From positions 838,956 to 902,955 of the forward strand of contig CAVOVB010000002.1 in assembly GCA_963699755.1 (NCBI GenBank): a stretch of DNA of 64,000 bases. Reading direction: 5' to 3'. Position 1 is the stretch's first letter; the number at the start of each line of letters is the position of its first letter. The position numbers were made by a program, and so were the translations under genes. The stretch is from an uncultured delta proteobacterium. GTDB lineage: Bacteria; Myxococcota_A; Polyangia; Polyangiales; Houyiibacteriaceae. A model generated the notes under the pieces. The model saw nothing but the letters and a program-made list of their open reading frames with translations, was not told the origin of the DNA and made no database searches. Positions 3,540 to 29,062 of the stretch are shown one piece after another.

Positions 3540-3735
3540 GCCCGCGGTCTTGCTCGGCGCGAACGCCATGATCTTCGCCCACAATCATCCTTCTGGAGAT
3601 CTTCAGCCGAGCCCCGAAGACAAGAAGCTGGCCGAGACGCTCTGCCAGGCCTGTACTCTGCTGGGCCTCCGACTTCTCGACAACCTCATCTGGACCGAGC
3701 TCGGAAGCACGAGCTACGGGCCGTACGCGCGATGA
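3540..3735 (+). pseudogene. 3' fragment of a second RadC/JAB gene
   Basis: Closely matches 2050-2244 (PAVLLGA..HNHPSGD..YGPYAR); the 5' half is absent. Confidence 0.85.
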
Positions 3736-4903: not shown

Positions 4904-5095
4904 ATGAGCACCAAGAAGCACAGCATCTACGTCATCCAGGAAGGCACCCAGGGCAAGAGCTACTGGAACCGAGCCGGAGTTGCGTTTTTGAACAAGGACG
5001 GGAGCTTCACGTTGAAGCTCGACATCCTCCCTCAGACGAAGTTCCAGCTCCGCGAGGAACAGCCCGTCACCGAGGAGCATGTAACGGCCGAGTAG
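4904..5095 (+). CDS. 63-aa conserved small protein (DUF736-like, tentative), copy 1
   Basis: Strong RBS; KSYWNRAGVAFLNKDGSF motif; 4 copies in the window. Confidence 0.8.
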   Translation: MSTKKHSIYVIQEGTQGKSYWNRAGVAFLNKDGSFTLKLDILPQTKFQLREEQPVTEEHVTAE

Positions 5096-5109: not shown

Positions 5110-5134
5110 CAACCAGGGCGCCCTGCCCCGGTTG
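5110..5134 (+). repeat. CAACCAGGGC-gccct-GCCCTGGTTG hairpin repeat (also at 9135, 12364, 15346, 16819, 19742)
   Basis: Six near-identical copies in the same orientation. Confidence 0.9.
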
Positions 5135-5268
5135 TCGCTCGCACGCACAGAAAACGCAGAAGCTGCGCCCAGAATCGCCCTGCAGGAAAGAATTACGTAT
5201 AGCGCGGCGCAATCCGGCGACCCCATGTTGCCTATGACCCCTCTGTGCGGGTCGGCCGGGGGTTTCTC

Positions 5269-5745
5269 ATGCGGTACTTGATTGGCTTTGTGTTGGCGCT
5301 GGCGTCGGTGGCTTCGCCTCTGAGCGTCGGCGCACAAGCCGGTGAGGAAGCGGTACCGAAGGTTGCCTTGGCTATCCATACGCAGCATCGTCTGCCGCCG
5401 CAACTGATGTTGCGGGCGAGCTATTACCTATACCTCGATGCCGATGAGAAAGGCCGTTCACGGGTTGAGCAGTGGCACCCTGAAGCTTTCGTTGACCCTT
5501 CCGAGCCCGAGCCGACGAGCACGCCAGAGGAACAAGACGGGTTCAGTCATCCTGTCTACGTTGACCCCGTTTCGGGCGCGCCCTTGGCCGTCCCCGAAGA
5601 CCCGCAAGTGCCGACCGCGCCACTGAAGGAAGAACAAGAGCGTAAGAGGAGGCGGCGAATTGGCATCGGGGTTGGCGTCTCCGTTGCTGTCGTTGTTATT
5701 CTGGCTGTGGTCGGGGGCGTGGCGGCGGGGCTTCGTGACTTGTGA
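5269..5745 (+). CDS. Exported protein with MRYLxGF signal peptide and C-terminal TM anchor
   Basis: MRYLIGF..SPLSVGAQ; RRRRR followed by a hydrophobic tail. Confidence 0.7.
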   Translation: MRYLIGFVLALASVASPLSVGAQAGEEAVPKVALAIHTQHRLPPQLMLRASYYLYLDADEKGRSRVEQWHPEAFVDPSEPEPTSTPEEQDGFSHPVYVDPVSGAPLAVPEDPQVPTAPLKEEQERKRRRRIGIGVGVSVAVVVILAVVGGVAAGLRDL

Positions 5746-5803
5746 GCCACGCCGCGAGGCGGGCGGCACCATGTGCAACGTCGGCGCGTTTGGGACGTAG
5801 CAG

Positions 5804-5952
5804 CGCACCCGCTGCGCCCCCACGCCCCAAACGCAAAAGGTGCACGCCGTAACCTGAGATTCCCGAACGAAACGGGGCTTCCACCTGGCACGCCTGATGC
5901 ACCTACGTAGCCGCACTTAGGGGCGCATAACGCCGCAACCGGGGAGGTTGTT
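5804..5952 (+). repeat. Inter-cassette repeat B (also 6399-6547, 7639-7782, and inverted at 18885-19036)
   Basis: cgcacccgctgcgccccc.cgccccaaacgcaaa ... GGAGG RBS directly before a start codon. Confidence 0.9.
5886..5901 (+). promoter_or_regulatory. Sigma54 promoter (-24/-12); identical copies at 6483-6498 and 7722-7737
   Basis: TGGCACGCCTGATGCA, GG-N10-GC spacing. Confidence 0.75.
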
Positions 5953-6387
5953 ATGAAGCTGAAAAGGCTACTTTGGATCGGAGCTGCGCTTGTGACGGTT
6001 CCGTTCGCGAGTGGCTGCGGGTACGGGTGTACTGATAGGGGCTGCTTTGCCGGAATAGAGGTTGCCCTCGTGCCGAGTGTCAGCTCCACATACGACGTCG
6101 AGCTTGTTCTGGATGGCGTCGTTGATGCGTTCACATGCATCAAGACCGAAGACGGTTGGTCGGTCGGCGACTCGACTGAGGGTGTGCTGTGGTTTGGGTG
6201 CGACGGCTCCGGGTTTCACGTACACGCAACTCCCGAAACGTTGGGGATTTCGGTCGCTGCCCAAGATGGAAGCTGGACGGGGTCCATAAGCGAGAGCCCG
6301 GACTACCGGTTTTATCAACCCAACGGAGCTAAGTGCGACGGAGCGTACGGCTGCGACCAAGCAGAGCTGACCGTACCGAAGGGATGA
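5953..6387 (+). CDS. Hypothetical lipoprotein
   Basis: Lipobox ASGC; RBS. Confidence 0.75.
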   Translation: MKLKRLLWIGAALVTVPFASGCGYGCTDRGCFAGIEVALVPSVSSTYDVELVLDGVVDAFTCIKTEDGWSVGDSTEGVLWFGCDGSGFHVHATPETLGISVAAQDGSWTGSISESPDYRFYQPNGAKCDGAYGCDQAELTVPKG

Positions 6388-6547
6388 AACTTCAACGACG
6401 CACCCGCTGCGCCCCCACGCCCCAAACGCAAACGCTGCGTGTCACGCCAAAGGAATCACCAGCAAAAACCGACCCCTCACCGTGGCACGCCTGATGCAGC
6501 CTCATCGACCGACTTAGTTGCGCTCTGCGCCTGAACGGGAGGTCGTC

Positions 6548-7030
6548 ATGCGGTATTTAGCTGGCTTTGTGTTGGTGGCGGCGTTGGTGGCTTCGCCGCT
6601 GAGCGTGGGCGCGCAAGGCGGTCAGGAAGCGCCCGCAGTGGAGCTTCAAGTGGACGAGGCTGGGGTAGAAGTTGTGCCGAGCCGGCCAGGGACAATTGAC
6701 GGATACACGCTTGAGGAGATGCAGCTTCGTGTGAAGCGAGCGAAAATCGGGCTCTGGAGCACGGCGGGCGCGACCGTCGTAGGGGGCGTGATCATTGGCG
6801 CCTGGTGGAATTGCGAGCATCGCGATGAACCGGCGGACGATGCCTTCTTTGCTTGCCCGGGAGCACTCTTTTCGGGCGTTGCCGTAGGTTTCTCAGGAGC
6901 CGTGGGGATGATCGTCACGGGTGCTTTGTTGGGCGCTCGCAAGCGAAAGCTGCGCGAACTGCAGGAAGCGCACTACGGAACACCGCGCAGAGTCCAATGG
7001 GACCTGGCACGGTCGCGGCTCGTGTTCTGA
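6548..7030 (+). CDS. Exported membrane protein with MRYLxGF signal peptide
   Basis: MRYLAGF..SPLSVGAQ; two hydrophobic segments. Confidence 0.75.
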   Translation: MRYLAGFVLVAALVASPLSVGAQGGQEAPAVELQVDEAGVEVVPSRPGTIDGYTLEEMQLRVKRAKIGLWSTAGATVVGGVIIGAWWNCEHRDEPADDAFFACPGALFSGVAVGFSGAVGMIVTGALLGARKRKLRELQEAHYGTPRRVQWDLARSRLVF

Positions 7031-7043
7031 GGGGAGGTTCACC

Positions 7044-7607
7044 ATGCGGTATTTAGTTGGCTTTGGAGCCCTTCTAGTTGCGTTGGGGACATGGGGAGTA
7101 GCGGGGTGCGGGGAGTCGCTTATTCCGTGTGATGATTTGGGAGCCGGCTGCGCCCTGAGCGATGGCAGCGTGGGCGTGTGCACGCATGAAGGCTGCAGAA
7201 AGGAGTCGGGGCCAATCTCGTGCAAACACGGTTACGCCAATCTATACGACTGGGAAGACGGAACTCTCTGCCGGTCATCGGATCTGCGAGAGGGCACGTG
7301 TCTCGACGGCGTGTGCGGAGGCGAACACTTCTGCGAAGGCGTCGTGTGCGACGAACCAGACAACCTCTGCGAAAGCGATCAATTCTGCAACTGGGAGGGG
7401 GTCTGCGAGTTCCGGCAAGTTACGAAATGCAACGATCGGAGCGATTGCACGTCCGACAAGTGCGATTCTGACGTAGGGTGCGTCTACATCAATCGCCCTA
7501 ACGGCGCTGAGTGCGTCTTGCCGGGTGCAGACTGGTTCTGCTGCGGGCTCGGATTAGCTTGTTGCGACTATGGAACTTGCAGGGACGGCGTCTGCATTGA
7601 TGAGTGA
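7044..7607 (+). CDS. Cys-rich lipoprotein (MRYLxGF family)
   Basis: MRYLVGF..VAGC; CxDxxxCTxDxC-like repeats. Confidence 0.8.
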   Translation: MRYLVGFGALLVALGTWGVAGCGESLIPCDDLGAGCALSDGSVGVCTHEGCRKESGPISCKHGYANLYDWEDGTLCRSSDLREGTCLDGVCGGEHFCEGVVCDEPDNLCESDQFCNWEGVCEFRQVTKCNDRSDCTSDKCDSDVGCVYINRPNGAECVLPGADWFCCGLGLACCDYGTCRDGVCIDE

Positions 7608-7782
7608 CGCCGGTGCGTTTGAGGTGCAGCCGTAGCCACGCACCCGCTGCGCCCCCGCGCCCCAAACGCAAAGCCTGCGCGCATCGGTAGCGGATTCCAC
7701 TGCAAAAGCTGGGCTCCCACCTGGCACGCCTGATGCAGTTACATAGCCGCACTTAGGGTCACGCTGCACCGGGGAGGTCGTC

Positions 7783-8469
7783 GTGCGGTACCTATTCGGA
7801 TTCCTGTGCATTTGGGCGTTGGGAGCGGTTGCGCTGGTCGGGTGCAGCGAGGAAACGCCCCTGCCATTGGAATGCGTGCAGGACGAGGATTGCGATGACG
7901 CCAACGAATGCACGGATGATAGCTGCGTAGAGAAGCGGAGATGGTTCGAAGGGAAGTACTACGGTAGGTGCGAAAACTCTGCGGTTGAATACGGAGAATG
8001 TGACTTCGACGGTCTCGACGATGCCCTCGGTGGTCTAGACGGCATTTGTGTCGCAGGGGTCTGCGAGAAGAACCCGTGCGATGATGGCAACGAGTGCACC
8101 CACGACCTATACGATTTCGAAGGTTCGTGCGACCATATCGGATGTGGCGGGTGCCAACCCTGCGACCGTAATGGGGAGCCTGGCATCTGCGATGGTGACG
8201 TTTGCGCAGAGTATCCCTGCAATGACGGCGTCATTTGCGAAGATGGTGACCTATGCACCTACGATTTTTGCGATTACACAGACGGAATGTGCGACTTCAA
8301 TCCGGTGTGTCTCAGCGGTCAATGCAGAGTTGCCTCGTGCGATCCAACCGATGGGTCATGTACCTTCACTCCGGCGCCAGACGGAACGCCGTGCTCCTGC
8401 GGGGGCGTGATCTGCATTTGCCCCGGCACTTACGTCTGCAGCAGCGGCGCTTGCGTATGCCAGCTCTAA
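7783..8469 (+). CDS. Cys-rich lipoprotein (MRYLxGF family)
   Basis: MRYLFGF..LVGC; CDDxNECTxD repeats. Confidence 0.8.
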   Translation: MRYLFGFLCIWALGAVALVGCSEETPLPLECVQDEDCDDANECTDDSCVEKRRWFEGKYYGRCENSAVEYGECDFDGLDDALGGLDGICVAGVCEKNPCDDGNECTHDLYDFEGSCDHIGCGGCQPCDRNGEPGICDGDVCAEYPCNDGVICEDGDLCTYDFCDYTDGMCDFNPVCLSGQCRVASCDPTDGSCTFTPAPDGTPCSCGGVICICPGTYVCSSGACVCQL

Positions 8470-8851
8470 AGGGAGGCACGCGACGTGGGTGCGTTTGAGG
8501 CGCAGCCGTAGCTCTCGAATAGCGGCGCTTGCTCGGGGTTGAGCGGCCTCATCTCCGCCTCGCATGTACATCAATCGCGGTTGCGGCGCCGCCGCCGGCA
8601 GAGTCCGATCGGCCGAGCGCGTGACATCGCTGTGAAGCGACCGTCCGTGTCGGCGACCCCTCTCTGGTCCAGCCTGCCGATGTGTCCCTCGGGCTCTGCC
8701 ATGCCTCCAAAGGTCTACTCCGTGCGCCCTGCGTTCTCCCAAGCCGTGCGCTCCCTTCCCCGCTCTCACGCCCTACACTCTCGCAACCGAGTGCCAGCGG
8801 AGCTGTCACAGCGTTTGCCAAGGTTCCAGTTGCTTCGCGGTGAGCGCGCCG

Positions 8852-8908
8852 GCCGTGGGCCGAGGAGACAGCTCTCCTGCTTCGAGTGAGAGAGCTGCCA
8901 TCCACGGC
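8852..8908 (+). promoter_or_regulatory. Structured leader hairpin, copy 3
   Basis: Near-identical to 4828-4881. Confidence 0.6.
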
Positions 8909-8929
8909 ACACAAGAAAAGGAGAACACC

Positions 8930-9121
8930 ATGAGCACCAAGAAGCACACCATCTACGTCATCCAGGAAGGCAACCAGGGCAAGAGCTACTGGAACCGCGC
9001 GGGGGTTGCGTTCTTGAACAAGGACGGGAGCTTCACGTTCAAGCTCGACATCCTTCCTCAGACGAAGTTCCAGCTTCGCGAGGAACAGCCGCTCGCCAAG
9101 GAGAAAGCCGCCGCCGAGTAG
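8930..9121 (+). CDS. 63-aa conserved small protein, copy 2
   Basis: Highly similar to 4904-5095; RBS. Confidence 0.8.
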   Translation: MSTKKHTIYVIQEGNQGKSYWNRAGVAFLNKDGSFTFKLDILPQTKFQLREEQPLAKEKAAAE

Positions 9122-9221
9122 CGGCAGCCCGCGGCAACCAGGGCGCCCTGCCCTGGTTGCCGCGGGGCCTCCATGAACTTAGGCCTTCACCTGCGATCCT
9201 CCGTTTGATACGATCGTTCCG

Positions 9222-9437
9222 ATGCATTTCCTGGAGTGGGTCGAAGAAGCGGAGTCGCTGCTCAGGCGCGATGGCGTCTGGCCCGATCAAGACGACGTCC
9301 GCGCTCGCGGTGTGCTTGAGGAAGCTGCCCTCCGAGGCCCCGAGCCCCTCGTCCACGCCGTCCGCGCGCTACGGCGGGACCAAGAGCTTTGCGAGACGGA
9401 GCTCCGCACCCGCCAGCGATCCTCGGCTCCTTCTTGA
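9222..9437 (+). CDS. ~70-aa hypothetical protein (WVEEAES.LR.DG family), copy 1
   Basis: Three paralogues, each just downstream of the hairpin repeat. Confidence 0.65.
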   Translation: MHFLEWVEEAESLLRRDGVWPDQDDVRARGVLEEAALRGPEPLVHAVRALRRDQELCETELRTRQRSSAPS

Positions 9438-9457
9438 AAGGCCCTGAGCACTAGGAC

Positions 9458-9485
9458 TTGACATCACGCATTTTCACCCTATTCT
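9458..9485 (+). promoter_or_regulatory. Putative sigma70 promoter of the TA operon
   Basis: TTGACA-N16-TATTCT. Confidence 0.45.
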
Positions 9486-9508
9486 GAGTGATAGATAATG
9501 TGATTTTG

Positions 9509-9859
9509 ATGCAATTCCGCGCCTTCATCGACGACAACCACTTCTCTCCTTCGAAGATTGCCGAGGCCCTGAGAACGACGAAAGGCGAGATCTCGGAAAC
9601 CCTCGGACTCGCCTCGGATGCGTTGACGCGGCGGCAGCGGATGGAGGCTGTGAAGACGCAGACCCGGCTTCGAGAGATGCTCGAGATCCTGAACCGCGTC
9701 GAGTCCGTGACCGGATCGCTCCTCGGAGCTTACGCGTGGTTTCGCTCGGAGCCGCTCCCTGGGTTCGGGGGGCAGACGCCCGATCAACTGGTTCGTGCGG
9801 GCAAGGCCAGCCAAGTGCACGCCTATCTCGATCGGGTGATGGCGGGTGGCTACGCATAG
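9509..9859 (+). CDS. Xre/MbcA/ParS-type antitoxin (DUF2384-like)
   Basis: AYAWFRSEPLPGFGGQTPDQLV..GGYA. Confidence 0.85.
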   Translation: MQFRAFIDDNHFSPSKIAEALRTTKGEISETLGLASDALTRRQRMEAVKTQTRLREMLEILNRVESVTGSLLGAYAWFRSEPLPGFGGQTPDQLVRAGKASQVHAYLDRVMAGGYA

Positions 9860-10388
9860 CTGGGGAATCCGGTTTCAGGGATCGGTCTACCGCGCACACA
9901 ATCCCGAATGGGCGTGGGATCCACTGTCAGGTGCGGGCGCCAAGCTCCACGGGGGTCGCTTCAACCGTCGAGGGCGTGCTGCGCTCTACACATCACTCGA
10001 CGTGCTGGTCGCCGTGCGGGAGGTGAGCCCCCTCGGTGCGCCCTTTCATCCTCTGACCTTGTGCCAGTATCGGGTCGAGTGCGAAAACGTCTTCGATACC
10101 CGAGACCCCAAAGCAATGAAACGCGAGAAGGTTTCCGAGGATCAGCTCGAGTGTCCGTTCTGGAATCAGGAGATGCTCGAAGGGCAGGTCCCGGCATCGC
10201 ATCGACTCGCCGAACGCCTCATCGAAAGAGGCTATGCCGCCATGATCGTCCGTAGCTTTGCGGACGGCGTCGGTCCTGAGGATATGAATCTGGTTCTCTG
10301 GAAGTGGACGAAGCGGCGGCCCCACAGGATCATCCTCTTCGATCCCGATCGTAGGCTTCCGAAGGATGGCTCCTCGTGGAGGAAGTAG
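9846..10388 (+). CDS. RES-domain toxin
   Basis: YRAHNP.WAWDPLSGAGA..GGRFN..ALYTS. Confidence 0.9.
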   Translation: MATHSWGIRFQGSVYRAHNPEWAWDPLSGAGAKLHGGRFNRRGRAALYTSLDVLVAVREVSPLGAPFHPLTLCQYRVECENVFDTRDPKAMKREKVSEDQLECPFWNQEMLEGQVPASHRLAERLIERGYAAMIVRSFADGVGPEDMNLVLWKWTKRRPHRIILFDPDRRLPKDGSSWRK

Positions 10389-10567
10389 GGGTTATTGGCG
10401 GGCTTGTCTGGCACTTGGAAGACGACTGCGGCCGCGGTCGTGGCGGAGAAGCGTCGGGGCCCGCGGGAATGCCCCTCTTGCAGAGCTCGATTTGGATAGG
10501 GCTAGGCATCGCCTCCAGTTCGGGGGGGACGAAGCCGATCTTTCGTTCTACTCTCCGCGGGGAGCTC

Positions 10568-11380
10568 ATGATGTTTCCCGCCCCAAGACCCTTGGCCGAG
10601 GACTTCGGTCGTACGGAAGTGACCATCGATGGCGCCACCAAACCCGTTTGGCGAAGTGGCAACGGTCCCGGCGTGGTCATCATGCACGAGGTGCCAGGCA
10701 TTACGCCTGAGGTGGCGCGGTTCGCCCGGATCGTGCGCGACCGCGGGTTCACCGTGTTCTTGCCGGAGATGTTTGGGACGGTCGATAAGCCGGTGAGCGG
10801 TGGGTACGCGATCGCTTCGATGCTTCACTGCTGCATCTCGCATGAGTTCCACGTTCTCGCGGCAGGCGGGTCTAGTCCCATTACCGACTGGCTCCGCAAG
10901 CTCTGTCATCAAGTGCATGAGGAGCTCGGTGGACCTGGGGTCGGTGCCCTCGGCATGTGCATGACCGGCAATTTCGCTCTTGCGCTGATGGTTGACCCTT
11001 CCGTTATGGCTCCCGTGTTGTCTCAGCCCTCGCTGCCTTTTCCGTTTGGAAAGAAGCGCAGCCGTGCGATTCACGTTTCACCCGAGCAGCTTGAGGCGAT
11101 CAAGCGACGCGTGCGCGAAGAGAATGTCAAGGTGCTGGGTCTTCGGTTCACGGCCGATCGAGTCTGCACCCGCGCTCGTTTCGAGACGCTTCGCCGGGAG
11201 CTCGGCGAGGGATTCGAGGCAATCGAGATCGATTCCGGACCAGGCAATCCCTGGGGAATCAAGCAAATCGCGCACAGCGTCCTCACCGAAGAGCTCGTCG
11301 ATGACGATGGGCATCCAACGAAGCAGGCGCTCGATCGCGTGCTCGGATTCTTCGAAGAGCGGCTCAGAGCGTCTGGCTAG
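10568..11380 (+). CDS. Dienelactone hydrolase family protein
   Basis: MHEVPG; GMCMTG nucleophile elbow; AHSVLT. Confidence 0.85.
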   Translation: MMFPAPRPLAEDFGRTEVTIDGATKPVWRSGNGPGVVIMHEVPGITPEVARFARIVRDRGFTVFLPEMFGTVDKPVSGGYAIASMLHCCISHEFHVLAAGGSSPITDWLRKLCHQVHEELGGPGVGALGMCMTGNFALALMVDPSVMAPVLSQPSLPFPFGKKRSRAIHVSPEQLEAIKRRVREENVKVLGLRFTADRVCTRARFETLRRELGEGFEAIEIDSGPGNPWGIKQIAHSVLTEELVDDDGHPTKQALDRVLGFFEERLRASG

Positions 11381-11429
11381 CCAATATCGTCGCGTTGCGA
11401 TGTGAGAAGATTCGGGACTAGCCCGCATC

Positions 11430-11692
11430 GTCGTGTCGGGATTGTGCCCACTGTAAGCCAGGCGTACGGCACGATTCTCGGGGTCTTCGCCTCGGACCGC
11501 CTCGACTGCATCGGCCACTTCCCTCACAAGCAAGGGAACGACGAAGTCCCCGGCTGGGTCCGCTCCGGCGCGAACTTCGATCTGAAACGCTTCGAGCTTC
11601 TTTGGGAGCGCGTCGCCAATTTCGTCGCGGCGCAGAGGCAGGCAACGGTCACCGAGGAGGCATCGCCTCGTCCCGAGTCTCCCGCGGCTTGA
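11430..11692 (+). pseudogene. C-terminal fragment of a lipase-like alpha/beta hydrolase
   Basis: GIVPTVSQ..SDRLDCIGHF resembles DGIVP..DHLD; N-terminus absent. Confidence 0.45.
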
Positions 11693-11809
11693 GAGCTAGC
11701 TGCTCCACAGCTTGTCCGAAGGCGGTGCCGATCTTTTGATTGGTCCAATGCGCTTCGCGTGTAGCACGACAATGCCGTTCGCGACGTCGGACCGGCGCCC
11801 GCTCGCGGG

Positions 11810-12056
11810 TACGAGCACGCTCTTCTCCGGCCTCAGAGGCACCGGCAAGACCATGGCCGCCAAGGTGATCGGACGGACGCTCGAATTGGACGTCTATCGA
11901 ACGAATCTCCCGGAGGTGGTCTCGAAGTGGGTTGGGGAGACCGAGAAGAACCTCTCGCGAATGTTCGCCCACGCGCAGCATAGCAAGGCGCTCTTGCTCT
12001 TTGACGAGGCTGACGCGCTCCTCGGGAAGTGCACATGAGTCTCTGACGCGTACGAC
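11810..12056 (+). pseudogene. AAA+ ATPase internal fragment
   Basis: GTGKTMAA..VVSKWVGETEKNL..LLFDEADAL, then a stop. Confidence 0.8.
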
Positions 12057-12155
12057 CCCCTCGAAACGCGCAGACTCACGAAAGAGGCTGAGCATGAATG
12101 GCCACGCGGCCCTCCGTACCTGTGCCCATATCGGATCGTCGTTGGGCTCGAACAC
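12057..12155 (-). pseudogene. Contractile tail-sheath C-terminal fragment
   Basis: VFEPNDDPIWAQVR..FM..LFR..FEG. Confidence 0.55.
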
Positions 12156-12164
12156 CGCCCCCGC

Positions 12165-12349
12165 GCACCAAGAAGCACACCATCTACGTCATCAACACCA
12201 CCGATAACGGCAAGAGCTACTGGAACCGCGCGGGGGTCGCCTTCGGGAACAGGGACGGGAGCTTCACGTTCAAGCTCGACATCTTTCCTCAGACGAAGTT
12301 CCAGCTTCGCGAAGAACAGCCCGCTACGAAAGCGGAGGCCGCCGAGTAG
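12165..12349 (+). pseudogene. 63-aa small protein, copy 3 (RBS and ATG lost)
   Basis: TKKHTIYVI..KSYWNRAGVAF intact; the start is replaced by the sheath fragment. Confidence 0.75.
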
Positions 12350-12606
12350 CGCCCTGCCCGCGGCAACCAGGGCGCCCTGCCCTGGTTGCTTGCTCACACG
12401 CATAGAAACCGAGGCGCACGTCCTGCGCGGTTTTCGGCCGACCGGTGAAAAGTCCAATCGTTCTCAGGAGCCGTCTCGTCGATGGAGGCGCAACCTTTGC
12501 GTACGCGAAATAGCTAAAGAATTACGTATAGCCACAGGTCCTACGGCGACCCAAGTCGCATTGTGTGACCGGCCCGAGCCGGCCGGGTGCAAGCGGGGAG
12601 GTTGTG

Positions 12607-15243
12607 ATGCGCTACTTATTCGGATTCCTATGTGTCTGCGCGCTCGGAGTGATGCCCTTGGCTGGGTGTACTGAGAGCAAACAAGAGCCGGACCTCGAGT
12701 GGCCGCCGAACGCGACGGTGTACTTCGATCAGTACGGCATCCTGAGCGCCGACTGCGCGACCGACGAAGACTGCGCGATGGTGATCGGCTACTACCACGC
12801 CGCGGATCGGTTCGTGCAGATGGATTTCCGGCGGCGATTTGCCACGGGTCGGCTGACCGACATCATGGACAAGGCCGTCGCGCAGGTTTTCGGCGTCGCC
12901 GAGATTGCCGCCCAGAGCCGTGCTCTCTTTTCGACGCGTGATGGGCAGCCGGTAGAGGAGTTTGTCCTCTCGCGAGCATCGGACAAGACCATCGCGATGC
13001 TGGAGGCATACAGCGCGGGGGTCAATCAGTGGATTGACGACGTGCGCGACGGAAACAATGGAGCCGTTTTCCCCCGCGAGTTCGATGCCCCGTTATTCGT
13101 CTACGGCCCGGACGACATCCCCGAGTGGACCCCGCAAGACAGCATCGCTGCAGTACTGGCCGCCATTGACCGAGAGTCCAACTTGGAGGACTACGAAGCG
13201 CTGGCGGGGGCCGCACGCGAGGCGATTCAGGACGACGATCGGTTCTTCGATCTATGGGCTACCCGTCCGCTCCCATCATCGATTCTTCCTCCGGGCTGGA
13301 TGCCGGGAGCTTCTCAAGAGTCTTCTGCAAAGGCGCCGCCAATCACCAAGCAAGAGCCCCAAAGTAACTCTCTTCATGCGGGTCGAGCGCTTCAGCGTCT
13401 CCACGACCGCCTGGCGCAAACGGAAGAGCTCTTCGGATCGATTCTCGGCACCGGTCTTGAGGGCGGCTCCAACAACTGGGCGATTGCTCCCTCACGGAGT
13501 GGGACGGGGAACGCTCTATTCGCTGCGGACGGGCATCTCAGGTTGAGCCAGCCCACCGAATGGTATTTCGCGCATCTCGATGCAAGAACGCACGGAAGCG
13601 GACAGCTCCACGTAGTTGGAGGGACCTCGGCGGCTTTACCATGGGTCATCTATGGTCAGAACGAGGACATCGCATGGGGATCGACGAGAACCTTTCTTGA
13701 TATGAGCGATCTCTACATCGAGGAGCTCGCCACGGATGCGGAAGGCGCTCCAATCGGTGTGCGGTTCGAGAACGAGACGGTGCCGTTCACGCGGGTATCC
13801 TTCACTGTGACATTCAATGATGGAAGCACCGAAGAGCACGAGCTCCTCTTCGTCCCCCACCATGGGCCCGTGCGCGAGATCGACCTGGCCAACGGTGTCG
13901 CCGTCACACTTCGTTGGACGGGAAGTGATACCGATACGGACATCGAGTATCTGGGGGCGTTGAATGCAGCGGAAAGCGTGTTGGAAGCCCGAACCGCACT
14001 TGAGAACTCTACGACGCGAGGAGCCAATTTTGTGGTCATCGACACCGAGGGCAACATTGGCTGGTTTCCCTACAACCGCGTCCCCAAACGTACCTGGGCA
14101 ACGGATCTCCTCGGTGAAGCCCATCCCATGCTGCCGCTCGACGGCCGCTGCGAGACTCCAGAGCGCTGCTACGAATGGACCGAGTACTTCGCTTACGATG
14201 ACCTTCCGCAAGCCTTGAATCCGAGCGAGGGCTTCATCGCCACGGCCAACAACGATATGACGGGGCACCTATTCGATGGTGACCCGACCAACGACGGCTA
14301 TCCACCCTTGCAGACCGTACTCCCTATCCTTGGTGCTCGCCACACTCGTATCGTAAGCCTGATCCAAGAGCTCGGCTCAGAGCAGACTGCAGAAACGATG
14401 CATCAAATTCAGCATGACACCTATTCGCTGCTCGCCGAGCGCATGCTGCCAAGCTTCATCGAAATCGCGGAGTCCGACATGACGACGTTGACAGAAGCGG
14501 GACAGAAGGTCCTGAACGCCCTCAAGTCGTGGGAATCGCTCACCTGCCCGACGGGTGTCGATGGCTACTACATGGACTCTCCGCTCACGGACGATTCCCG
14601 GGAGCTTCTCGAGTCGTCTGGTTGTGCCGCATTTCACGCCGTCTACTACAAGTGCGATCTGGCGCCGAGGAATCAACCCACGTTCTACCGCTGGCTGTAC
14701 TTCTACTCCGTGTATGATCCGAGCCGACTGCGTAGAGGGGATGTATATTGGGATGATCCCGGCACTCCGGAAGAGGAGACGAAGTATCAAGTGATCGAGG
14801 AGTGCTTCGACCAGGCAGGGCGCTTGCTCATCGACGACCTCGGCCTAGGGAACGACGAGACGAAGTGGGTGTGGGGGCGCTTGCATGGGCTTGTTCTGAC
14901 CTCCGATCTCGATGCCTTTCTTCAACCGCAGTACAACAACCCGCCTCCCGGCGGCACGCTCTTTGCGAACTCGGGTGGAGCTCTGACCATCAGCCCAACC
15001 AATCCTTCGTTAGGCTCATCTGGTTTCGTTCAGCGAAATGGCTCCGTGCAGCGCCTGATCTGCGAGGCGCTGCCGACAGGTCCGAGCTGCACCGTCGAGG
15101 TGCCAGGGGGGCAGTCCGGCCACATCACCTCGGAACACTACGACGATCTGCTGTTCAAGTACCTCGATGGTGAGCCGATCGACCTGCCCTTTGACATCGA
15201 CGAGGCGAAGGCCAACGCGGTGAGGACGGTCACCTTCGAGTAG
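12607..15243 (+). CDS. Penicillin acylase family (Ntn hydrolase) lipoprotein with MRYLFGF leader
   Basis: GYYHAADRFVQMD; GSNNWAI; ATANND; PGGQSG. Confidence 0.92.
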   Translation: MRYLFGFLCVCALGVMPLAGCTESKQEPDLEWPPNATVYFDQYGILSADCATDEDCAMVIGYYHAADRFVQMDFRRRFATGRLTDIMDKAVAQVFGVAEIAAQSRALFSTRDGQPVEEFVLSRASDKTIAMLEAYSAGVNQWIDDVRDGNNGAVFPREFDAPLFVYGPDDIPEWTPQDSIAAVLAAIDRESNLEDYEALAGAAREAIQDDDRFFDLWATRPLPSSILPPGWMPGASQESSAKAPPITKQEPQSNSLHAGRALQRLHDRLAQTEELFGSILGTGLEGGSNNWAIAPSRSGTGNALFAADGHLRLSQPTEWYFAHLDARTHGSGQLHVVGGTSAALPWVIYGQNEDIAWGSTRTFLDMSDLYIEELATDAEGAPIGVRFENETVPFTRVSFTVTFNDGSTEEHELLFVPHHGPVREIDLANGVAVTLRWTGSDTDTDIEYLGALNAAESVLEARTALENSTTRGANFVVIDTEGNIGWFPYNRVPKRTWATDLLGEAHPMLPLDGRCETPERCYEWTEYFAYDDLPQALNPSEGFIATANNDMTGHLFDGDPTNDGYPPLQTVLPILGARHTRIVSLIQELGSEQTAETMHQIQHDTYSLLAERMLPSFIEIAESDMTTLTEAGQKVLNALKSWESLTCPTGVDGYYMDSPLTDDSRELLESSGCAAFHAVYYKCDLAPRNQPTFYRWLYFYSVYDPSRLRRGDVYWDDPGTPEEETKYQVIEECFDQAGRLLIDDLGLGNDETKWVWGRLHGLVLTSDLDAFLQPQYNNPPPGGTLFANSGGALTISPTNPSLGSSGFVQRNGSVQRLICEALPTGPSCTVEVPGGQSGHITSEHYDDLLFKYLDGEPIDLPFDIDEAKANAVRTVTFE

Positions 15244-15435
15244 AAGGAGGACTGCGATGGAGTCGCATCCAGAGGGCACGATGTGCGACCTCGGATCGTT
15301 TGAGCGCCAAACCGACGAGCCCTAGCGCTGGAGCGTAGCCCACGGCAACCACGGCACCCTGCCCTGGTTGTCTGCCAGGGCCGAAGAGCCCCTTGACCCT
15401 TCTCCCAAGATCTTCGCTCTGGTACGATCGAGCCC

Positions 15436-15645
15436 ATGGATCTGTCGGACTGGGTCGAAGAAGCGGAATCGATCCTGCGATTGGACGGCTTATGGCCGGA
15501 ACAGGATGAAGAGCGAGCTCGAGGCGTTCTCGAGGAAGCGGCATTGCAGGGTCCCGCGGCCGTTACTCAGGCGATCTACGTGCTTCGGCGAGAGCTGAGG
15601 GAACGAGGCCGAGGCGTTCGCGATCAAAGCGTCCCCTGCAGATAG
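15436..15645 (+). CDS. ~70-aa hypothetical protein, copy 2
   Basis: Paralogue of 9222-9437. Confidence 0.65.
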   Translation: MDLSDWVEEAESILRLDGLWPEQDEERARGVLEEAALQGPAAVTQAIYVLRRELRERGRGVRDQSVPCR

Positions 15646-15803
15646 TAAATTCAAACGCCCTTTCGGCTTCGTGCGCCAGGCGACATAACGTCTAGTACCG
15701 CATCCCGACAGGCTAAGAGAGTTGGTGAAGGGCAAAACGGCAGCTCTCCGGGGACTTGCGCACCAGCAGGCTAGATTTGCCCAAGTGAAAGTAAATCTCT
15801 ACA

Positions 15804-16634
15804 TCAGTCACCGGCGAAAGGCGGGTCACCGGGCGCGCGGTACTTGTCCAAGGGACTGCGCACGGCGTCACTGCCATAGTACCAACCGTTTCCATCGAGC
15901 TCTTCGAAGAGAAGGTGCATGGCGGAGCGCGTGCCCTCTTCTGGTGACTTCATCCCGAGGTCGGCGGGCGACTTGCCAGAGGACTCGGCGTAGGGCCGGG
16001 TCAGGTCTGTCTCAATAAACCCGGGCGTACATGCGTTGATGCGCAGCGAAGGGTGATTCTGCGCAAGGCACATGGTGAGGCTATTGGCGCAAGCCTTGGA
16101 GAGTCCATAGGCGTCTGCCTCGTCGCCGGCTTTGACTGCGGCGCTCATGAGCGCGTCGATGGCGCCCCACTCCACCTTCGGGTCCACAAAGAACCTTTGT
16201 TTGTCCTGATCACATTTGGCCACGTACATGGGCCCGGAAGCGGATGTGATGTTCACCATGCGCCCCGAGCTTTTGTCGAGCAAAGACAGGAAGGAGTCGC
16301 TCACGCGTTTGATGCCGCGCACATTCACATTGAGTACGGTCTCAAGCGCGTCCGAACCGAGCCCAATGCCCGCGTTGTTGACGATGCCGTAGAGCGACTC
16401 CCCATTCACCGCTGCCTTTACTTGCTCCGCCGCTGCCGCCACGGAGTCGTCGCTTGCCACATCGAGCGCCACCACCTGCACTCGGTCGGAAGCGATGGTC
16501 TCACAAGCCTTCTTGCCGCGTTCCGCATCGCGAGACCCCAGAAAAACGAAGGTATCATCGTGATTTCTTAAAATGGCCTGCACAATGGCGAGGCCGATTC
16601 CTTTGTTTGCTCCGGTTACCAAAATCCTTCGCAT
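15804..16634 (-). CDS. SDR family oxidoreductase (carbonyl reductase-like)
   Basis: TGANKGIG, NNAG, YGLSK. Confidence 0.92.
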   Translation of the reverse strand: MRRILVTGANKGIGLAIVQAILRNHDDTFVFLGSRDAERGKKACETIASDRVQVVALDVASDDSVAAAAEQVKAAVNGESLYGIVNNAGIGLGSDALETVLNVNVRGIKRVSDSFLSLLDKSSGRMVNITSASGPMYVAKCDQDKQRFFVDPKVEWGAIDALMSAAVKAGDEADAYGLSKACANSLTMCLAQNHPSLRINACTPGFIETDLTRPYAESSGKSPADLGMKSPEEGTRSAMHLLFEELDGNGWYYGSDAVRSPLDKYRAPGDPPFAGD

Positions 16635-16912
16635 ATCATCCTCCTGGAGTCAGAGGGGTACGAACTCCTCGAGCGAACCGCAAGGCCATGCACAAGATCC
16701 GGATCTTATTTCGCAACGGTCTTGCGAGCCGCGTCCAGATACGGGCGGCACCACGTGCGATGTCGGCGCGTTCGAGCGGCAGTCGGACGACCCCTAGCGC
16801 TAGCGCGCAGCGCACGGTCAACCAGGGCGCCCTGCCCTGGTTGTCTGCCAGGCCCCGTCGAAGAGCTTCTTGGCTCGTCTCCCAAGATCTTCGCTCTGAT
16901 ATGATCGTACTC

Positions 16913-17143
16913 ATGGATCTGGCGGACTGGGTCGAAGAAGCGGAGTCGCTCCTACGAAGGGACGGCCTACGGCCCGAAGAGGATGAAGAGCGAGCTCGAG
17001 GCGTTCTCGAGGAAGCGGCATTGCAGGGCCCCGCGGCCGTCACCCAGGCGATCTACGCGCTGCGAAGGGAGCTTCGCGACGCAGATCGACGCGTCCGCGG
17101 CCAAAGTGCGGCTGCAGGGTGGAAAACATTTCGCTGGCCATAG
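16913..17143 (+). CDS. ~70-aa hypothetical protein, copy 3
   Basis: Closely similar to 15436-15645. Confidence 0.6.
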   Translation: MDLADWVEEAESLLRRDGLRPEEDEERARGVLEEAALQGPAAVTQAIYALRRELRDADRRVRGQSAAAGWKTFRWP

Positions 17144-17208
17144 ACAAGGGGGCATTGCGCGGAGAGGATCTCGAAGATCTTCTCGCCGACGGGATACCGC
17201 CTCCACTC

Positions 17209-18357
17209 ATGAACGACGCATTCCATTCCGAGTATCCATCGATCGAGCACCTCCGGGAAAAGGCCCGAAAGCGCATGCCGGGATTCGCGTTCGACTACCT
17301 CGAGAGCGGTTGCAATTCCGACATCAACCTCGCGCGCAACACCGCGGACATCCGCAAAGTGCAATTGCGCCCGTACTACATCGGCCACTATGCGGGATCG
17401 AGTCTTCGGACCGAGCTCTTCGGGGTGAGCTACGAGGCCCCCTTCGGCATCGCTCCGATCGGTTTGCAGGGGCTGATGTGGCCAAAGGCGTGCGAGATCC
17501 TCGCCAAGGCCGCCCATGAGCACAGGATCCCCTTCGTCCTGAGCACGGTGGGCACCGCCAGCATCGAGACGGTCGCCGAGCTCACGGAGGGACGCGCCTG
17601 GTTCCAGCTCTACCATCCCGCCGAGGACGAGCTGCGCGACAAGCTTCTCGAACGCGCCGCCGAGGCCGACATGCCGGTTCTCGTCATCCTCGCCGACACC
17701 CCGACCTTCGCCTATCGCCCGAGGGAGATCCGAAACGGGCTCTCCATCCCGCCCCAGATGAATCTCCGCAACGTCCTCCAGATGATGACCCATCCGACCT
17801 GGTCGTTCTCGCAGCTCTTGGCCGGGGCTCCGGAGTTCAAAACGATGCTCCCCTACCTTCCGAAGGGCCTGAGCATGAAACACCTCGGCCTCTTCATGAA
17901 CCAGACGTTTTCCGGCCGACTCAACGAGGACAAGATCAAAGCCATCCGCGACAAGTGGAAAGGCAAGCTGGTCGTGAAGGGCATCGTCACGGAAGAGGAT
18001 GCCGAAAAGGTTCTCGCGCTCGGAGCGGACGGCTTCATTTGTTCCAACCACGGTGGGCGCCAACTCGACGCCGGGCAATCCACGATCAAGCCGATGACCG
18101 AGCTCGCCAAGAAGTACGGGGACCGGACCACGGTGATGATGGACAGCGGCCTGCGTTCCGGGCCGGACGTGGCCTGCGCGTTGGCAAGCGGCGCGAAATT
18201 CACCTTCCTCGGCCGCTCCTTCATGTATGGGGTCGGCGCCCTTGGAAAAGATGGAGGCTTGCACACCATCACGATGATCAAGCGCCAGCTTCAGCAGGTC
18301 ATGGAGCAGTTGGGATGCGAACGCGTCGAGGACTTCCCCAAGCACCTCATTTCGTGA
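17209..18357 (+). CDS. FMN-dependent alpha-hydroxy acid dehydrogenase (L-lactate dehydrogenase-like)
   Basis: SNHGGRQLD, WFQLY, DSGLRSG. Confidence 0.93.
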   Translation: MNDAFHSEYPSIEHLREKARKRMPGFAFDYLESGCNSDINLARNTADIRKVQLRPYYIGHYAGSSLRTELFGVSYEAPFGIAPIGLQGLMWPKACEILAKAAHEHRIPFVLSTVGTASIETVAELTEGRAWFQLYHPAEDELRDKLLERAAEADMPVLVILADTPTFAYRPREIRNGLSIPPQMNLRNVLQMMTHPTWSFSQLLAGAPEFKTMLPYLPKGLSMKHLGLFMNQTFSGRLNEDKIKAIRDKWKGKLVVKGIVTEEDAEKVLALGADGFICSNHGGRQLDAGQSTIKPMTELAKKYGDRTTVMMDSGLRSGPDVACALASGAKFTFLGRSFMYGVGALGKDGGLHTITMIKRQLQQVMEQLGCERVEDFPKHLIS

Positions 18358-18443
18358 GCGGATAGGGTTCGGAGGAGGCTGGCGCCTGATTGTCGGCCCT
18401 CACGTACAAGGCGCATTGAACCCGGCGCGGGACATGCCCCCCT

Positions 18444-18884
18444 TCAGAACACGATTGCCACAGCGCTCGTGCCGGACCGGTCAAAGGAACGATTAACCTG
18501 CCCCGCCGACACGCCCAGGGCCACGCCGACAATCAGAGCAGCAACACCAAGGGAGACGCCCACTCCGATGGCCACTCGCCGCCTACGCTGCTGCGCCTCC
18601 TCACGCTCGAGCTCTTCGACTGTCGGTGGTGCAGTTGGCGTCACCTCCAGACTGGCAGAATCGACCTCCAGCTGTAGCTCTGGCTGAGGCGCAGACTTGG
18701 TGGGGTCCACGAAGGCTTCGGGATGCCAACGCTCGAGGCGCGATCGGGTCGGCTCAGCCGATTGCACTGGCTTCTCCGCATTGGGCTCGGCCGACTTGCC
18801 TTCCGCTTCCGCTTGCGCCCCAACGCTCAGAGGCGAAGCCGTCAGCCACGCGAGCACGCACATCGATCTGAATAGGTAAAGCAT
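18444..18884 (-). CDS. Exported protein of the MRYLxGF/SPLSVGAQ family with C-terminal TM
   Basis: Shares WHPEAFVDP and RRRR..IGVGVS with 5269-5745; preceded by inverted repeat B. Confidence 0.7.
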   Translation of the reverse strand: MLYLFRSMCVLAWLTASPLSVGAQAEAEGKSAEPNAEKPVQSAEPTRSRLERWHPEAFVDPTKSAPQPELQLEVDSASLEVTPTAPPTVEELEREEAQQRRRRVAIGVGVSLGVAALIVGVALGVSAGQVNRSFDRSGTSAVAIVF

Positions 18885-19536
18885 CACAATCCCTCCGATT
18901 GCGCCCGCCCGTATCGAGTCGGTCACATGAGGCAAGTTGGGTCGCCGGGCGGCGCCGAGCCATACGTAATTCTTTACTTGCCAAGCGATGGCCCGCGCAG
19001 CTTTTGCGTTTGGGGCGTGGGCGCGCAACGGGTGCGCGGTGCGGAGCTCGCCATCCTCGTCCAAGGCCGCGTGGAGATCGAGGGGGTGCGTCACATGCCT
19101 GGAGGTGAGCTACCCCATACGGTGCCACCGCTACCTGCAATACGCTTGACCCCGGCGGGAGGGGCACGACGATGTCGGAGCCGCCGTGGCCGTCGTCGAG
19201 AGAGGTGAAACGCTCGCCGTCAATAGATAGGGGGAGAGCCAGACTCGCTGCTTCGGACTCGACGGGTAACGGCGCGCTTCCATGGCTTTGTCCTTTTTGC
19301 CGTTTGCGGCGAAAAGGGCATCAGGAACGGCTCACGCTCTCAGTGGTGCAAGTTGCGTTCCTCCCAGATTCGTATGTCTTTCCATAGCGCGGAGCCGTTG
19401 CCGGATGCAGGATGCGCGTTCGCTCGTTGGTGTTGCACAAGTCCTGCGCGAATCGCGGAGACAAAAAGGATCAAACTAGACTTGTACGGGTGTCGGCTCC
19501 TGAGATCGGCTTGCTCCGTTCCCCTAGTCTCGCGGC

Positions 19537-19727
19537 ATGAGCACCAAGAAGCACACCGTCTACATCATCGAGACCAGCGACAAGCGCAAGAGTACCAAAA
19601 CCGCGCGCGGTCGGCTTCGAGACCAAGGACGCGAGCTTCGCGTTCAAGCTCGACGTCTTCCCATAGACCAAGTTCCAGCCTCGCGAGGAAAAGCCCGCCG
19701 TTCAAGAGGAGGTCCTTGCCGAGTCAC
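19537..19727 (+). pseudogene. 63-aa small protein, copy 4 (frameshifted)
   Basis: MSTKKHTVYII, then indels; followed by the hairpin at 19742. Confidence 0.75.
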
Positions 19728-19791
19728 TGCCGGCCTCCAGGCAACCAGGGCGCCCTGCCCTGGTCGTCTGCCAAGTTTCGGGCCGCGGGTC

Positions 19792-27568: not shown

Positions 27569-29062
27569 CTCATGATTGGTCACATCTTTTGGCGATGAGA
27601 AAGCCTTGGGCGAGGTCGAGAAGCTTGAGGTAGCCACGACCGAGCACGAGCCAGCCCGGTTCGCCGTTTCGTTTCAGGTGTCCTCCGAGCCGTGCAATGG
27701 CGAGCAGGGCCTGGCGAAGCGTGGGGTGTTTGGGAAGTGGTTTCTCGGCGACGTGGCGCAAGACATCGAGTTCGACCGAGGACAGCACGGTCTCGGCCGG
27801 TTGCTTTGCTCCTTCCTGCGCCATCGTTCTGAGCCGCAGCAGGTTCCACGCGATCGGTAAGAAGAGCGCCAGTGCGTTGACCAGGGTCCGATAGCTCCCT
27901 AGTTCCCGCTTCTCGTACGCACACCCCGTCTTGAGCGCCTTGAAGAGCTCCTCGATCTTCCATCGATGCCGATAGCCATCGACCACCGCCAGGATTTGTT
28001 CCTGCGTGTCGATTGGCTCGGTCGTCATCAGCGTCCACTCCACCGGCTCCACTTCATCCGGAGCGTCGACCTCCCGCACCCAGACGATATTGAGTGGCAC
28101 GGCGTACGCCTCTTTCTTTCGATGGTAGTGCGGTGCTCGAATCTCGACGGCACCAGCTCCGATCGTCAGTGTTGCTTGCCGCGATTGGCGAGGAAGCCGT
28201 TGTTTGGTGTTGGCGCGAAATCGGGTCTTGGTTCGTTTGGACAGATGCACGTCGCGCGTGCACACGATGGAGCTCGACGACACGAATTGCTTGAGTTTGT
28301 TGGGCTCGTCGGCCTCGGCGTGCAGTCGACGATTGCCACCGGCGCGGATAATGAAGCGGTACCGTCCGCTCACGAGTTTGCGCAAAAGCGCATAGTCGTC
28401 GGCTTCGCTATCCATCACATGAATCAGCGAAGAAGCGTCTTCGAAGACGGTCTCCGTCTGTTCGACCGTCGACATCCATCGGTCTTGTTCGTTGGGCCAG
28501 CCCTCTGCGCCGTGTGGAATCTTCTCACCGCGAAGCCGTCGCTGCCGCATCGTGTTGTTGCCCCGCGCCCACGGGCTCAGGCCGACGACGCCAAGCGCGA
28601 CACCATCGAGCCCTGCTGCCATCGCGATATGCCCGAACAGCGTTCGGCCTGCGTATTCGCCCAGCCCCTCTCGCGGCGTGCCGAATTGAAACAAGGTCGT
28701 GTCCTGTACACAAAGCACCGCATCTCGATTGGCACACCGGCCTACCGTCGCTTGGATGTGCGGCGCCAAGATGCGATCGGCATCGACGCGGTCATTGCTG
28801 ACAAACCGGTAGAAGGCCTCCAGCTCCGCTTCGGTCATGGCGTTGGGAAACCCCACATCCGGCTTCGCCTCGAGCGCTTCAGCGATCTTCTCTAGCCTCG
28901 TATTCAGCCTCTGGTCTCCAAGAGCCGCCCCCGCGTATTCGCTTTGGACCAGTCGTTTGTCTTCCCCCATAGACCAGGTAGATCACAGCGGCGCCGACCC
29001 AGCAACACCGCTCCCTAACCGATCGAAATCAGACCGCCTTTCGACTTGTGTAGGATCATGCG
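27569..29062 (-). mobile_element. IS4-family (IS50-like) insertion sequence
   Basis: Imperfect terminal IRs catgat....caca at both ends; flanks ccgcgcgg / ccgcgcgc as a probable target duplication. Confidence 0.8.
27570..28970 (-). CDS. IS4-family transposase
   Basis: LGDQRLNTRL; QDTT; DSEAD; YRHRWKIEELFKALKTG (YREK). Confidence 0.95.
   Translation of the reverse strand: MGEDKRLVQSEYAGAALGDQRLNTRLEKIAEALEAKPDVGFPNAMTEAELEAFYRFVSNDRVDADRILAPHIQATVGRCANRDAVLCVQDTTLFQFGTPREGLGEYAGRTLFGHIAMAAGLDGVALGVVGLSPWARGNNTMRQRRLRGEKIPHGAEGWPNEQDRWMSTVEQTETVFEDASSLIHVMDSEADDYALLRKLVSGRYRFIIRAGGNRRLHAEADEPNKLKQFVSSSSIVCTRDVHLSKRTKTRFRANTKQRLPRQSRQATLTIGAGAVEIRAPHYHRKKEAYAVPLNIVWVREVDAPDEVEPVEWTLMTTEPIDTQEQILAVVDGYRHRWKIEELFKALKTGCAYEKRELGSYRTLVNALALFLPIAWNLLRLRTMAQEGAKQPAETVLSSVELDVLRHVAEKPLPKHPTLRQALLAIARLGGHLKRNGEPGWLVLGRGYLKLLDLAQGFLIAKRCDQS

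Follow-up and report, generated by a model that had tools for sequence, protein, structure and literature searches.

We analyzed a stretch of 64,000 nucleotides (nt) from the genome of an uncultured delta proteobacterium of the Houyiibacteriaceae (contig CAVOVB010000002.1, positions 838,956 to 902,955), hereafter called the window. It contains an array of genes for exported proteins which begin with a related leader of the MRYL type and are in several cases followed by a short orphan copy of the end of another gene, the tail. Genes that possess leader and tail as their own start and end (parents) are still present in this genome, and the leader/tail pattern is real and genus-wide.

Leader genes, tails and promoter modules in the window

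An earlier note on this DNA had described six genes with a related GGAGG-type ribosome-binding site (RBS) and MRYL-type leader. All six lie where it placed them, at 5269, 6548, 7044, 7783, 12607 and, inverted, 18884, but GGGGG rather than GGAGG is found upstream of 5269 and the leaders are of two sub-types, one ending in a lipobox (...GC; 7044, 7783 and 12607) and one ending in SVGAQ without cysteine (5269, 6548 and 18884). The bodies differ as well, although not all are unrelated: they are of three kinds, with common segments in 5269, 6548 and 18884 and a weak similarity between 7044 and 7783. The SVGAQ-type genes are located at 5269..5745 (+), with a C-terminal hydrophobic segment and a body 95% identical to a gene of genome G020; at 6548..7030 (+), without a tail but with a conserved end of its own, RRVQWDLARSRLVF; and at 18444..18884 (−), inverted, kin to the other two and likewise without a tail. 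The 6548 gene belongs to a second family whose start and end are conserved around a variable middle, found also at three further loci (L047, L052 and L061) with at most four copies per array. The lipobox-type genes encode Cys-rich lipoproteins at 7044..7607 and 7783..8469 (both +) and an MRYL-leader lipoprotein at 12607..15243 (+), whose earlier identification as a penicillin acylase is supported by a match to PF01804. A further lipoprotein cargo gene at 5953..6387 (+) has a leader that is not of the MRYL type. In third-position GC content, five of the six window leader genes do not exceed the 3rd percentile of the genome; the two parents are at the 38th and 46th.

The five tails that had been described, all on the forward strand, are present. 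Four of them follow leader genes: 5744..5800 (EPRREAGGTMCNVGAFGT and stop) after 5269; 7606..7635 (core DAGAFEVQP and stop), which overlaps the stop codon of 7044; 8482..8511 (core DVGAFEAQP and stop) after 7783; and 15275..15325 (the variant GTMCDLGSFERQTDEP and stop) after 12607. The fifth, at 16726..16797 (EPRPDTGGTTCDVGAFERQSDDP and stop), stands after the start of a divergent short-chain dehydrogenase gene, without a leader gene, and this block of dehydrogenase and tail is 96% identical in genome G023. The claim that tails come directly after leader genes is thus valid for four of the six genes, but not for this tail.

Two kinds of promoter-like module were observed. Repeat B occurs in three copies, at 5803..5900, 6399..6497 and 7639..7736 (all +), which contain the identical 15-mer TGGCACGCCTGATGC at 5886, 6483 and 7722; this we take to be a sigma54-type −24/−12 element with one mismatch to the consensus TGGCAC-N5-TTGC. 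RpoN is present in the genome. The proposal that repeat B, with identical sigma54 promoters, ties each tail to the next leader gene was correct in respect of the identical 15-mers, but a tail is linked to an MRYL leader in this way only once (7606 to 7783): copy 1 precedes 5953 with its differing leader, and copy 2 is not preceded by a tail. The succession of repeat B, sigma54-type element, RBS and leader seen at 7783 is also found upstream of intact parents at two other loci (L150 and L116). The second module, AAGAATTACGTAT...CGGCGACCC, whose position suggests a promoter role, lies at 5184..5223 (+), at 12517..12560 (+) ahead of the acylase gene and, joined to the first half of repeat B, at 18939..19037 (−), and stands upstream of three window leader genes (5269, 12607 and 18884).

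The cassette groups are divided by four copies of a small gene of 63 amino acids (MSTKKH...), the first at 4904..5095 (+) with a palindrome at 5110 and the others at 8930-9121, 12167-12349 and 19537-19735, each followed by the palindrome CAACCAGGGCGCCCTGCCCTGGTTG. This gene is also multi-copy in the arrays of relatives; it has no Pfam family, falls into unnamed clusters in the Atlas, and DUF736 is a weak lead only (0.76). The surroundings of the leader and tail genes are island-like, with RES/Xre pairs, RadC-like genes and DUF3768.

Parent genes and distribution of the tail

The earlier note had read the CDxGAFE ends as the C-terminus of choice-of-anchor Q proteins. This was confirmed by the curated NF041518 cut-off of 25 bits, which was passed by all six full genes tested that end in CDVGA(F/Y)E, three from the genome of the window (G000) with 48-88 bits and three from relatives with 66-77 bits; five of these six have an MRYL-type leader. 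Intact head-to-tail parents, which the note had suggested searching for, were found in this genome and in relatives, extending from an MRYL-type leader through CDVGAFEVQP and stop. At L116 we observed a full parental unit of tail, repeat B, sigma54-type element, leader, Q body and tail, with a tail at both ends. The NF041518 domain was matched in no window cargo, and remnants of the Q domain lie only outside genes. One intact parent (G000:C3:110301-112931, in part L032) is flanked by the two halves of a tyrosine-transposase gene that has decayed and runs in the other direction, which suggests that whole parent units also move. At another locus (G000:C7:1-2903, L033), tandem parents with a different leader type and their own sigma54-type elements are followed by cargo, a relative of which, at C10:17359-18129, carries an MRYL-type leader.

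For the enrichment of tails, a profile built from 14 leaders gave 19 leader genes in the genome, and one was added by inspection; tails were called by a 30-nt weight matrix trained on protein-motif tails, plus three divergent tails added by hand, on a gene set from our own simple caller. A tail was present at the end of 10 of the 20 leader genes (2 intact parents, 2 in-frame fusions and 6 orphans), compared to 5 of 4,595 other genes, of which 2 are parents and 3 carry other cargo, and to 2 of the 379 remaining lipobox-like genes of the genome. The association with leader genes noted earlier is therefore a true enrichment.

The exact tail pattern was found at 46 loci in a search of 185,579 species genomes. 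Their record titles are mostly Myxococcales, Polyangiales, Polyangiaceae or Deltaproteobacteria metagenome-assembled genomes, the minority being 2 'uncultured bacterium', 2 'Coxiellaceae' and 1 Gemmatimonadota. A locus titled Gemmatimonadota (L103) holds an intact MRYL-leader parent with the exact tail, either by cross-phylum transfer or by mis-binning. With two mismatches allowed, the pattern was detected in 39 of 54 genomes of the same genus, in none of the 33 genomes that represent 17 further genera of the family and in none of 16 genomes of other families, and the reversed pattern had no match; the surveyed genomes are related to each other and incomplete, and the pattern is blind to other lineages' own versions. 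As a DNA pattern the tail is genus-specific, and the Q domain is spread more widely, occurring in 22 of 24 genomes from the genus and in 9 of 16 others. Viral contigs gave no exact 21-nt match to the tail.

The listed contamination of G000 (9%) could mean that the pattern arose from errors in assembling or binning a repeat-rich metagenome. We consider this largely refuted and extremely improbable, as the pattern recurs in 39 other genomes and the junctions are spanned in independent data. The sequencing runs that contain the stretch are sediment metagenomes; contigs of one of them (X1) cross the junctions 6401-7119, 7157-7641 and 7627-8509 with 2-8 differences, so the array is not an assembly artefact. 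Contigs of four runs agree with the order in the window and also contain other joins at module edges, although such contigs are unable to reveal events inside one strain.

Exchange of leaders, bodies and tails

In a census of tail-holding loci and G000, 101 leader genes formed 33 clusters, 13 of them parents. The 38 tail-bearing non-parents (after removal of five duplicates and addition of two window genes) include 23 without a match to any of the 13 parents, and these span 16 clusters. Identified cargo comprises the acylase, an SGNH hydrolase, a secretory lipase, DUF3089 and YCF48-like repeats. Among 96 genes, bodies at least 90% identical have leaders of 52-65% identity in 5 of 9 pairs (three families), and leaders at least 88% identical precede unrelated bodies in 12 of 24 pairs. 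The body of 5953 shows 90% DNA identity to a gene of G020 in which an MRYL leader and the second promoter module stand in front and a tail behind, the identity beginning just past the lipobox and stopping just past the stop codon. The 7783 body is 99.5% identical in genome G005, where the promoter switches at the RBS to the second module, and 90% identical in G023, where it stands behind the upstream gene end and leader start of 7044 and is followed by a longer tail. Different cargo in orthologous slots, as the earlier note had anticipated, thus exists. G005 and the window have a common backbone of 1.6 kb (84% identity), followed by different genes. Breakpoints were located at the RBS, within the leader, at the lipobox or in the Gly linker, and promoter, leader and tail each change independently of one another. 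The SGNH family shows two kinds of tail joint, an in-frame fusion in G000 and, at L107, a tail of the last 17 bases attached at a short match with the end of the enzyme cut, and one cargo can have differing tail variants. Judged from these comparisons, leader and body are decoupled, and their histories disagree. The suggestion that a multicopy gene serves as a landing frame with a swapped interior is supported by the parents and by the leader/body swaps, but the idea of one frame exchanged in one piece is borne out only in part, and some of the cargo resembles the parents.

In a quick tree of the mature acylase part, at least 4 leader changes were required versus 16 for shuffled labels, and a single MRYL clade was rejected (p-AU 3e-81); the tree was made from the 50 of the best 70 relatives whose N-terminus was usable, two of them relabelled by eye. 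More distant acylases carry lipoprotein leaders of their own; the export signal was therefore exchanged and not gained. This does not support the earlier idea that cargo acquires a missing export signal, and neither does 5953, whose leader is of another type in the window but of the MRYL type in G020.

Could the tails be passive relics, left where tandem parents decayed by deletion and insertion and then carried along in mosaic islands without any role in exchange? Some Cys-rich cargo may indeed be deleted parents: 15 of the 38 tail-bearing cargo genes match parents in part, mostly via Cys-rich repeats such as those of the parents' N-terminal stalk, and the leader gene at C2:364806-366020 has kept the parent beta-helix and lost the parent end. 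Moreover, the third positions of the Val and Gly codons in orphan tails vary as in coding DNA, and control gene ends often switch neighbours too. Yet the acylase, SGNH, lipase and DUF3089 bodies are not obtainable by deletion, and the tail variants differ on one and the same cargo. Among 112 distinct tails with full flanks, 83 are orphans versus 29 that close a parent-like frame, with the core kept across species, and the parent sequence in addition to the core is none in 23, with a median of 9 and a maximum of 94 bases. Measured from the 3′ end in a set that includes parents, 74 of 82 tails match over at least 30 nt and only 8 are shorter. This lower limit near 30 nt is the fact least explained by passive decay, and on balance we regard relics without a function as unlikely.

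The sharp length floor would also be expected if the tail were a selected working site, either the target of an unrecognized recombinase or, as an enhancer or RNA hairpin, part of the region that controls the next promoter. The rare codon TTT is used in 77 of 85 orphan tails versus 23% genome-wide, which fits such a site, but it is found in 21 of 30 parents as well. In 13 of 112 tails GCGTTTG is complementary, at fixed spacing, to CAAACGC of repeat B, and the fold of the tail copy at 5777 has a z value of −2.2; however, repeat B is absent from the other 99 tails, 6 of 7 folds tested were no better than shuffles, the sequences downstream vary, no conserved hairpin was found at the tails, and Rfam gave 0 matches. 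No clear dyad symmetry is seen in the core by eye.

The search for a recombinase also speaks against a selected site. For an integron, the best IntI match (TIGR02249) in the genome reaches 88.7 bits against a cut-off of 265; as to attC hairpins, which the folds and the unconserved flanks do not resemble, no dedicated attC model was run. None of 22 tyrosine recombinase matches in the genome lies in the region of the window. A large serine recombinase beside one array is not a consistent partner: any match was found in 23 of 54 genus genomes but none in G074, G010, G004, G005 and G015, which have 3-11 tails each, and a tail was present in 1 of 14 other neighbourhoods fetched, several of them short contigs. 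From its translation, the end of this recombinase gene appears to run into a tRNA-like sequence. The absence of an integrase tied to the arrays, as put forward earlier, agrees with these results for the genome and its relatives. Taken together, a selected working site seems distinctly unlikely to us. Diversification by reverse transcriptase was rejected, the only such gene in the genome (C1:2565-4418) being far from the arrays; REP/RAYT or TIRYT elements, in which a tyrosine transposase lies beside a conserved hairpin, are lacking in the window, 3 of 12 copies elsewhere have a leader or tail no more than 10 kb away, against a background of 6%, and the sequence past GTAG varies.

We lean towards a different account, probable rather than firm, in which cargo is captured on rare occasions through joins at short matches and then spreads when leaders and tails undergo homologous recombination. 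Choice-of-anchor Q lipoprotein genes would have multiplied in islands of the genus as units of promoter module, RBS, leader, body and end, and the first ~70 and last ~30-38 bases of the parent would thereby have become dispersed homology anchors. Other exported proteins may have come to lie between these through rare in-frame joins close to the lipobox or to the Gly-rich linker and through joins at short matches ahead of the final codons of the parent. The bracketed cargo, leader and promoter would then pass from one array, island or species to another when the anchors undergo ordinary homologous recombination; the incoming DNA would be taken up by transformation, ComEC and DprA being present, or be carried on satellites and other islands. 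Tails below ~30 bases would recombine too poorly to spread, which could account for the lower length limit. The outcome would be surface proteins and exported enzymes that are co-regulated and vary as a set. Whereas parents, tail enrichment and swaps of leader, body and promoter with their breakpoints are seen directly, the recombination route is deduced from them. Tail-bearing cargo occurs inside integrase-bearing elements at tRNA-Ser, tRNA-Arg and tRNA-Cys (L037, L038 and L036, satellite- or prophage-like, with tail-ended exported cargo), and the cargo paralogues of the tRNA-Ser and tRNA-Cys elements are 53% identical. In sediment contigs, other modules are joined to tail ends and to repeat B, with seven different sequences after position 8511 in run X7; two joints that go back (5838-5185 and 5847-5256) contain inserted letters, have short sides and are compatible with other module orders.

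Several observations weigh against this account. Half of the leader genes of the genome (10 of 20) have no tail, the acylase leader is mostly co-inherited with its body, as the few changes in the tree indicate, and the partly parent-like cargo has to be counted here as well. Signal peptides evolve fast, which weakens pairs with low leader identity taken on their own, and 30-38 bases with mismatches are near the lower limit for RecA. In the flank test, cargo pairs were 6 one-sided, 3 two-sided and 1 intermediate, only modestly above the control of tail-less gene ends in the same loci (15, 16 and 11, respectively); the islands are therefore mosaic regardless of tails. Other repeats, namely the 63-aa gene, a six-copy palindrome and the RRVQWDLARSRLVF end, are shuffled too. 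Finally, the data contain no recombination event or circle, and the contig joints are short-sided and possibly derive from other loci or organisms. In a bolder form, the last 30-38 bases of the parent would have been domesticated as a selected recombination address and would constitute, with the leader, a genus-wide two-anchor cassette system that captures exported genes, places them under either of two promoters and trades them between species, by host recombination or an unrecognized enzyme. This version we find doubtful.

Outside the array, the window region 43200-63550 holds 18 copies of GGATATCTGGAC, which is absent from the rest of the genome; the copies lie inside longer repeats around HNH-domain genes (42773-44782 and 51992-53614) and many toxin-antitoxin-type genes (GNAT, PIN and HTH), and the region is a separate repeat-bounded array. 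A RadC-like JAB gene (1729-2244) and a truncated second copy (3540-3735) flank a DHDPS-family gene, and an IS4/Tn5-type transposase is encoded at 27570-28970.

Known systems and meaning of the cassettes

The closest parallels are two. In the erp genes of Borrelia (OspE/F-related, 'upstream homology box'), one promoter/leader sequence precedes bodies of many origins, and the parts of the description available report a common promoter, leader and sorting sequence on bodies of independent origin, frequent recombination and mobile DNA (PMC10016077). A common promoter and leader on unrelated bodies is found here as well, and recombination between members is indicated by comparative evidence only (mosaics and the acylase tree). 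The erp genes, however, are alleles of a single locus on cp32 prophages, and those parts mention no conserved relic at the 3′ end (PMC10016077), whereas here several kinds of island, two promoter modules, a second anchor from the parent's coding end and enzymes among the cargo are observed. The resemblance is one of analogy across phyla and would not imply family membership. PeSL cassettes of T4-like phages contain short repeated regulatory modules, proposed in the sections consulted as sites of homologous recombination by which unrelated genes are shuffled without an integrase (PMC2839356). Tail, repeat B and promoter are placed between genes in a similar way, but PeSLs, as far as these sources describe them, belong to phages, combine a sigma70-like promoter with a terminator stem-loop, are non-coding and have been shown to form circles (PMC2839356, PMC4122927). 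The arrays studied here are part of a cellular genome and have a sigma54-type element, weak folds and anchors that are coding or once were; membership among the PeSLs was rejected on the promoter type and the weakness of the folds.

Further systems share single traits. In terminal reassortment of type III effectors a terminus with the export signal is moved onto other genes, according to the portions of the reports used (PMC2668190, PMC2935791), whereas here the leader is of the Sec/lipoprotein type, both ends are shared and the tested cargo was already exported. Displacement of rhs C-termini likewise leaves ragged orphan gene pieces in arrays, with homologous recombination and proposed circles, but the rhs orphan, as described in the part used, consists of a conserved core and a variable tip (PMC2935791), while here the orphan is a conserved end and the middle varies. 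Integron arrays also have co-directional unrelated genes separated by a repeat and toxin-antitoxin pairs nearby; here there is no IntI and no attC-type structure, and the cassettes bring promoters and share leaders. The lpl cluster of S. aureus consists of tandem island lipoprotein genes for which shuffling via conserved DNA is proposed, with, in the sections available, a conserved middle and variable ends, the reverse of the arrangement here (PMC4470592). The array is a family member of none of these systems, and what sets it apart from shared-leader shuffling is the second anchor, derived from the parent's coding end. In the literature searched, with supplements and most subscription journals outside its scope, we found no description of orphan choice-of-anchor Q ends or of the MRYL leader family, which may still have been published.

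The erp genes and the PeSL cassettes each display half of such a design. In the present case, the start and the end of a cellular gene family have both been kept as short anchors, which enclose at least 16 cargo clusters in dozens of species, and the source parent still exists. The long-standing idea of module exchange via short conserved linkers thereby becomes directly testable in a bacterium, and the tail offers a 30-base tag for locating variable exported enzymes in an uncultured sediment lineage.

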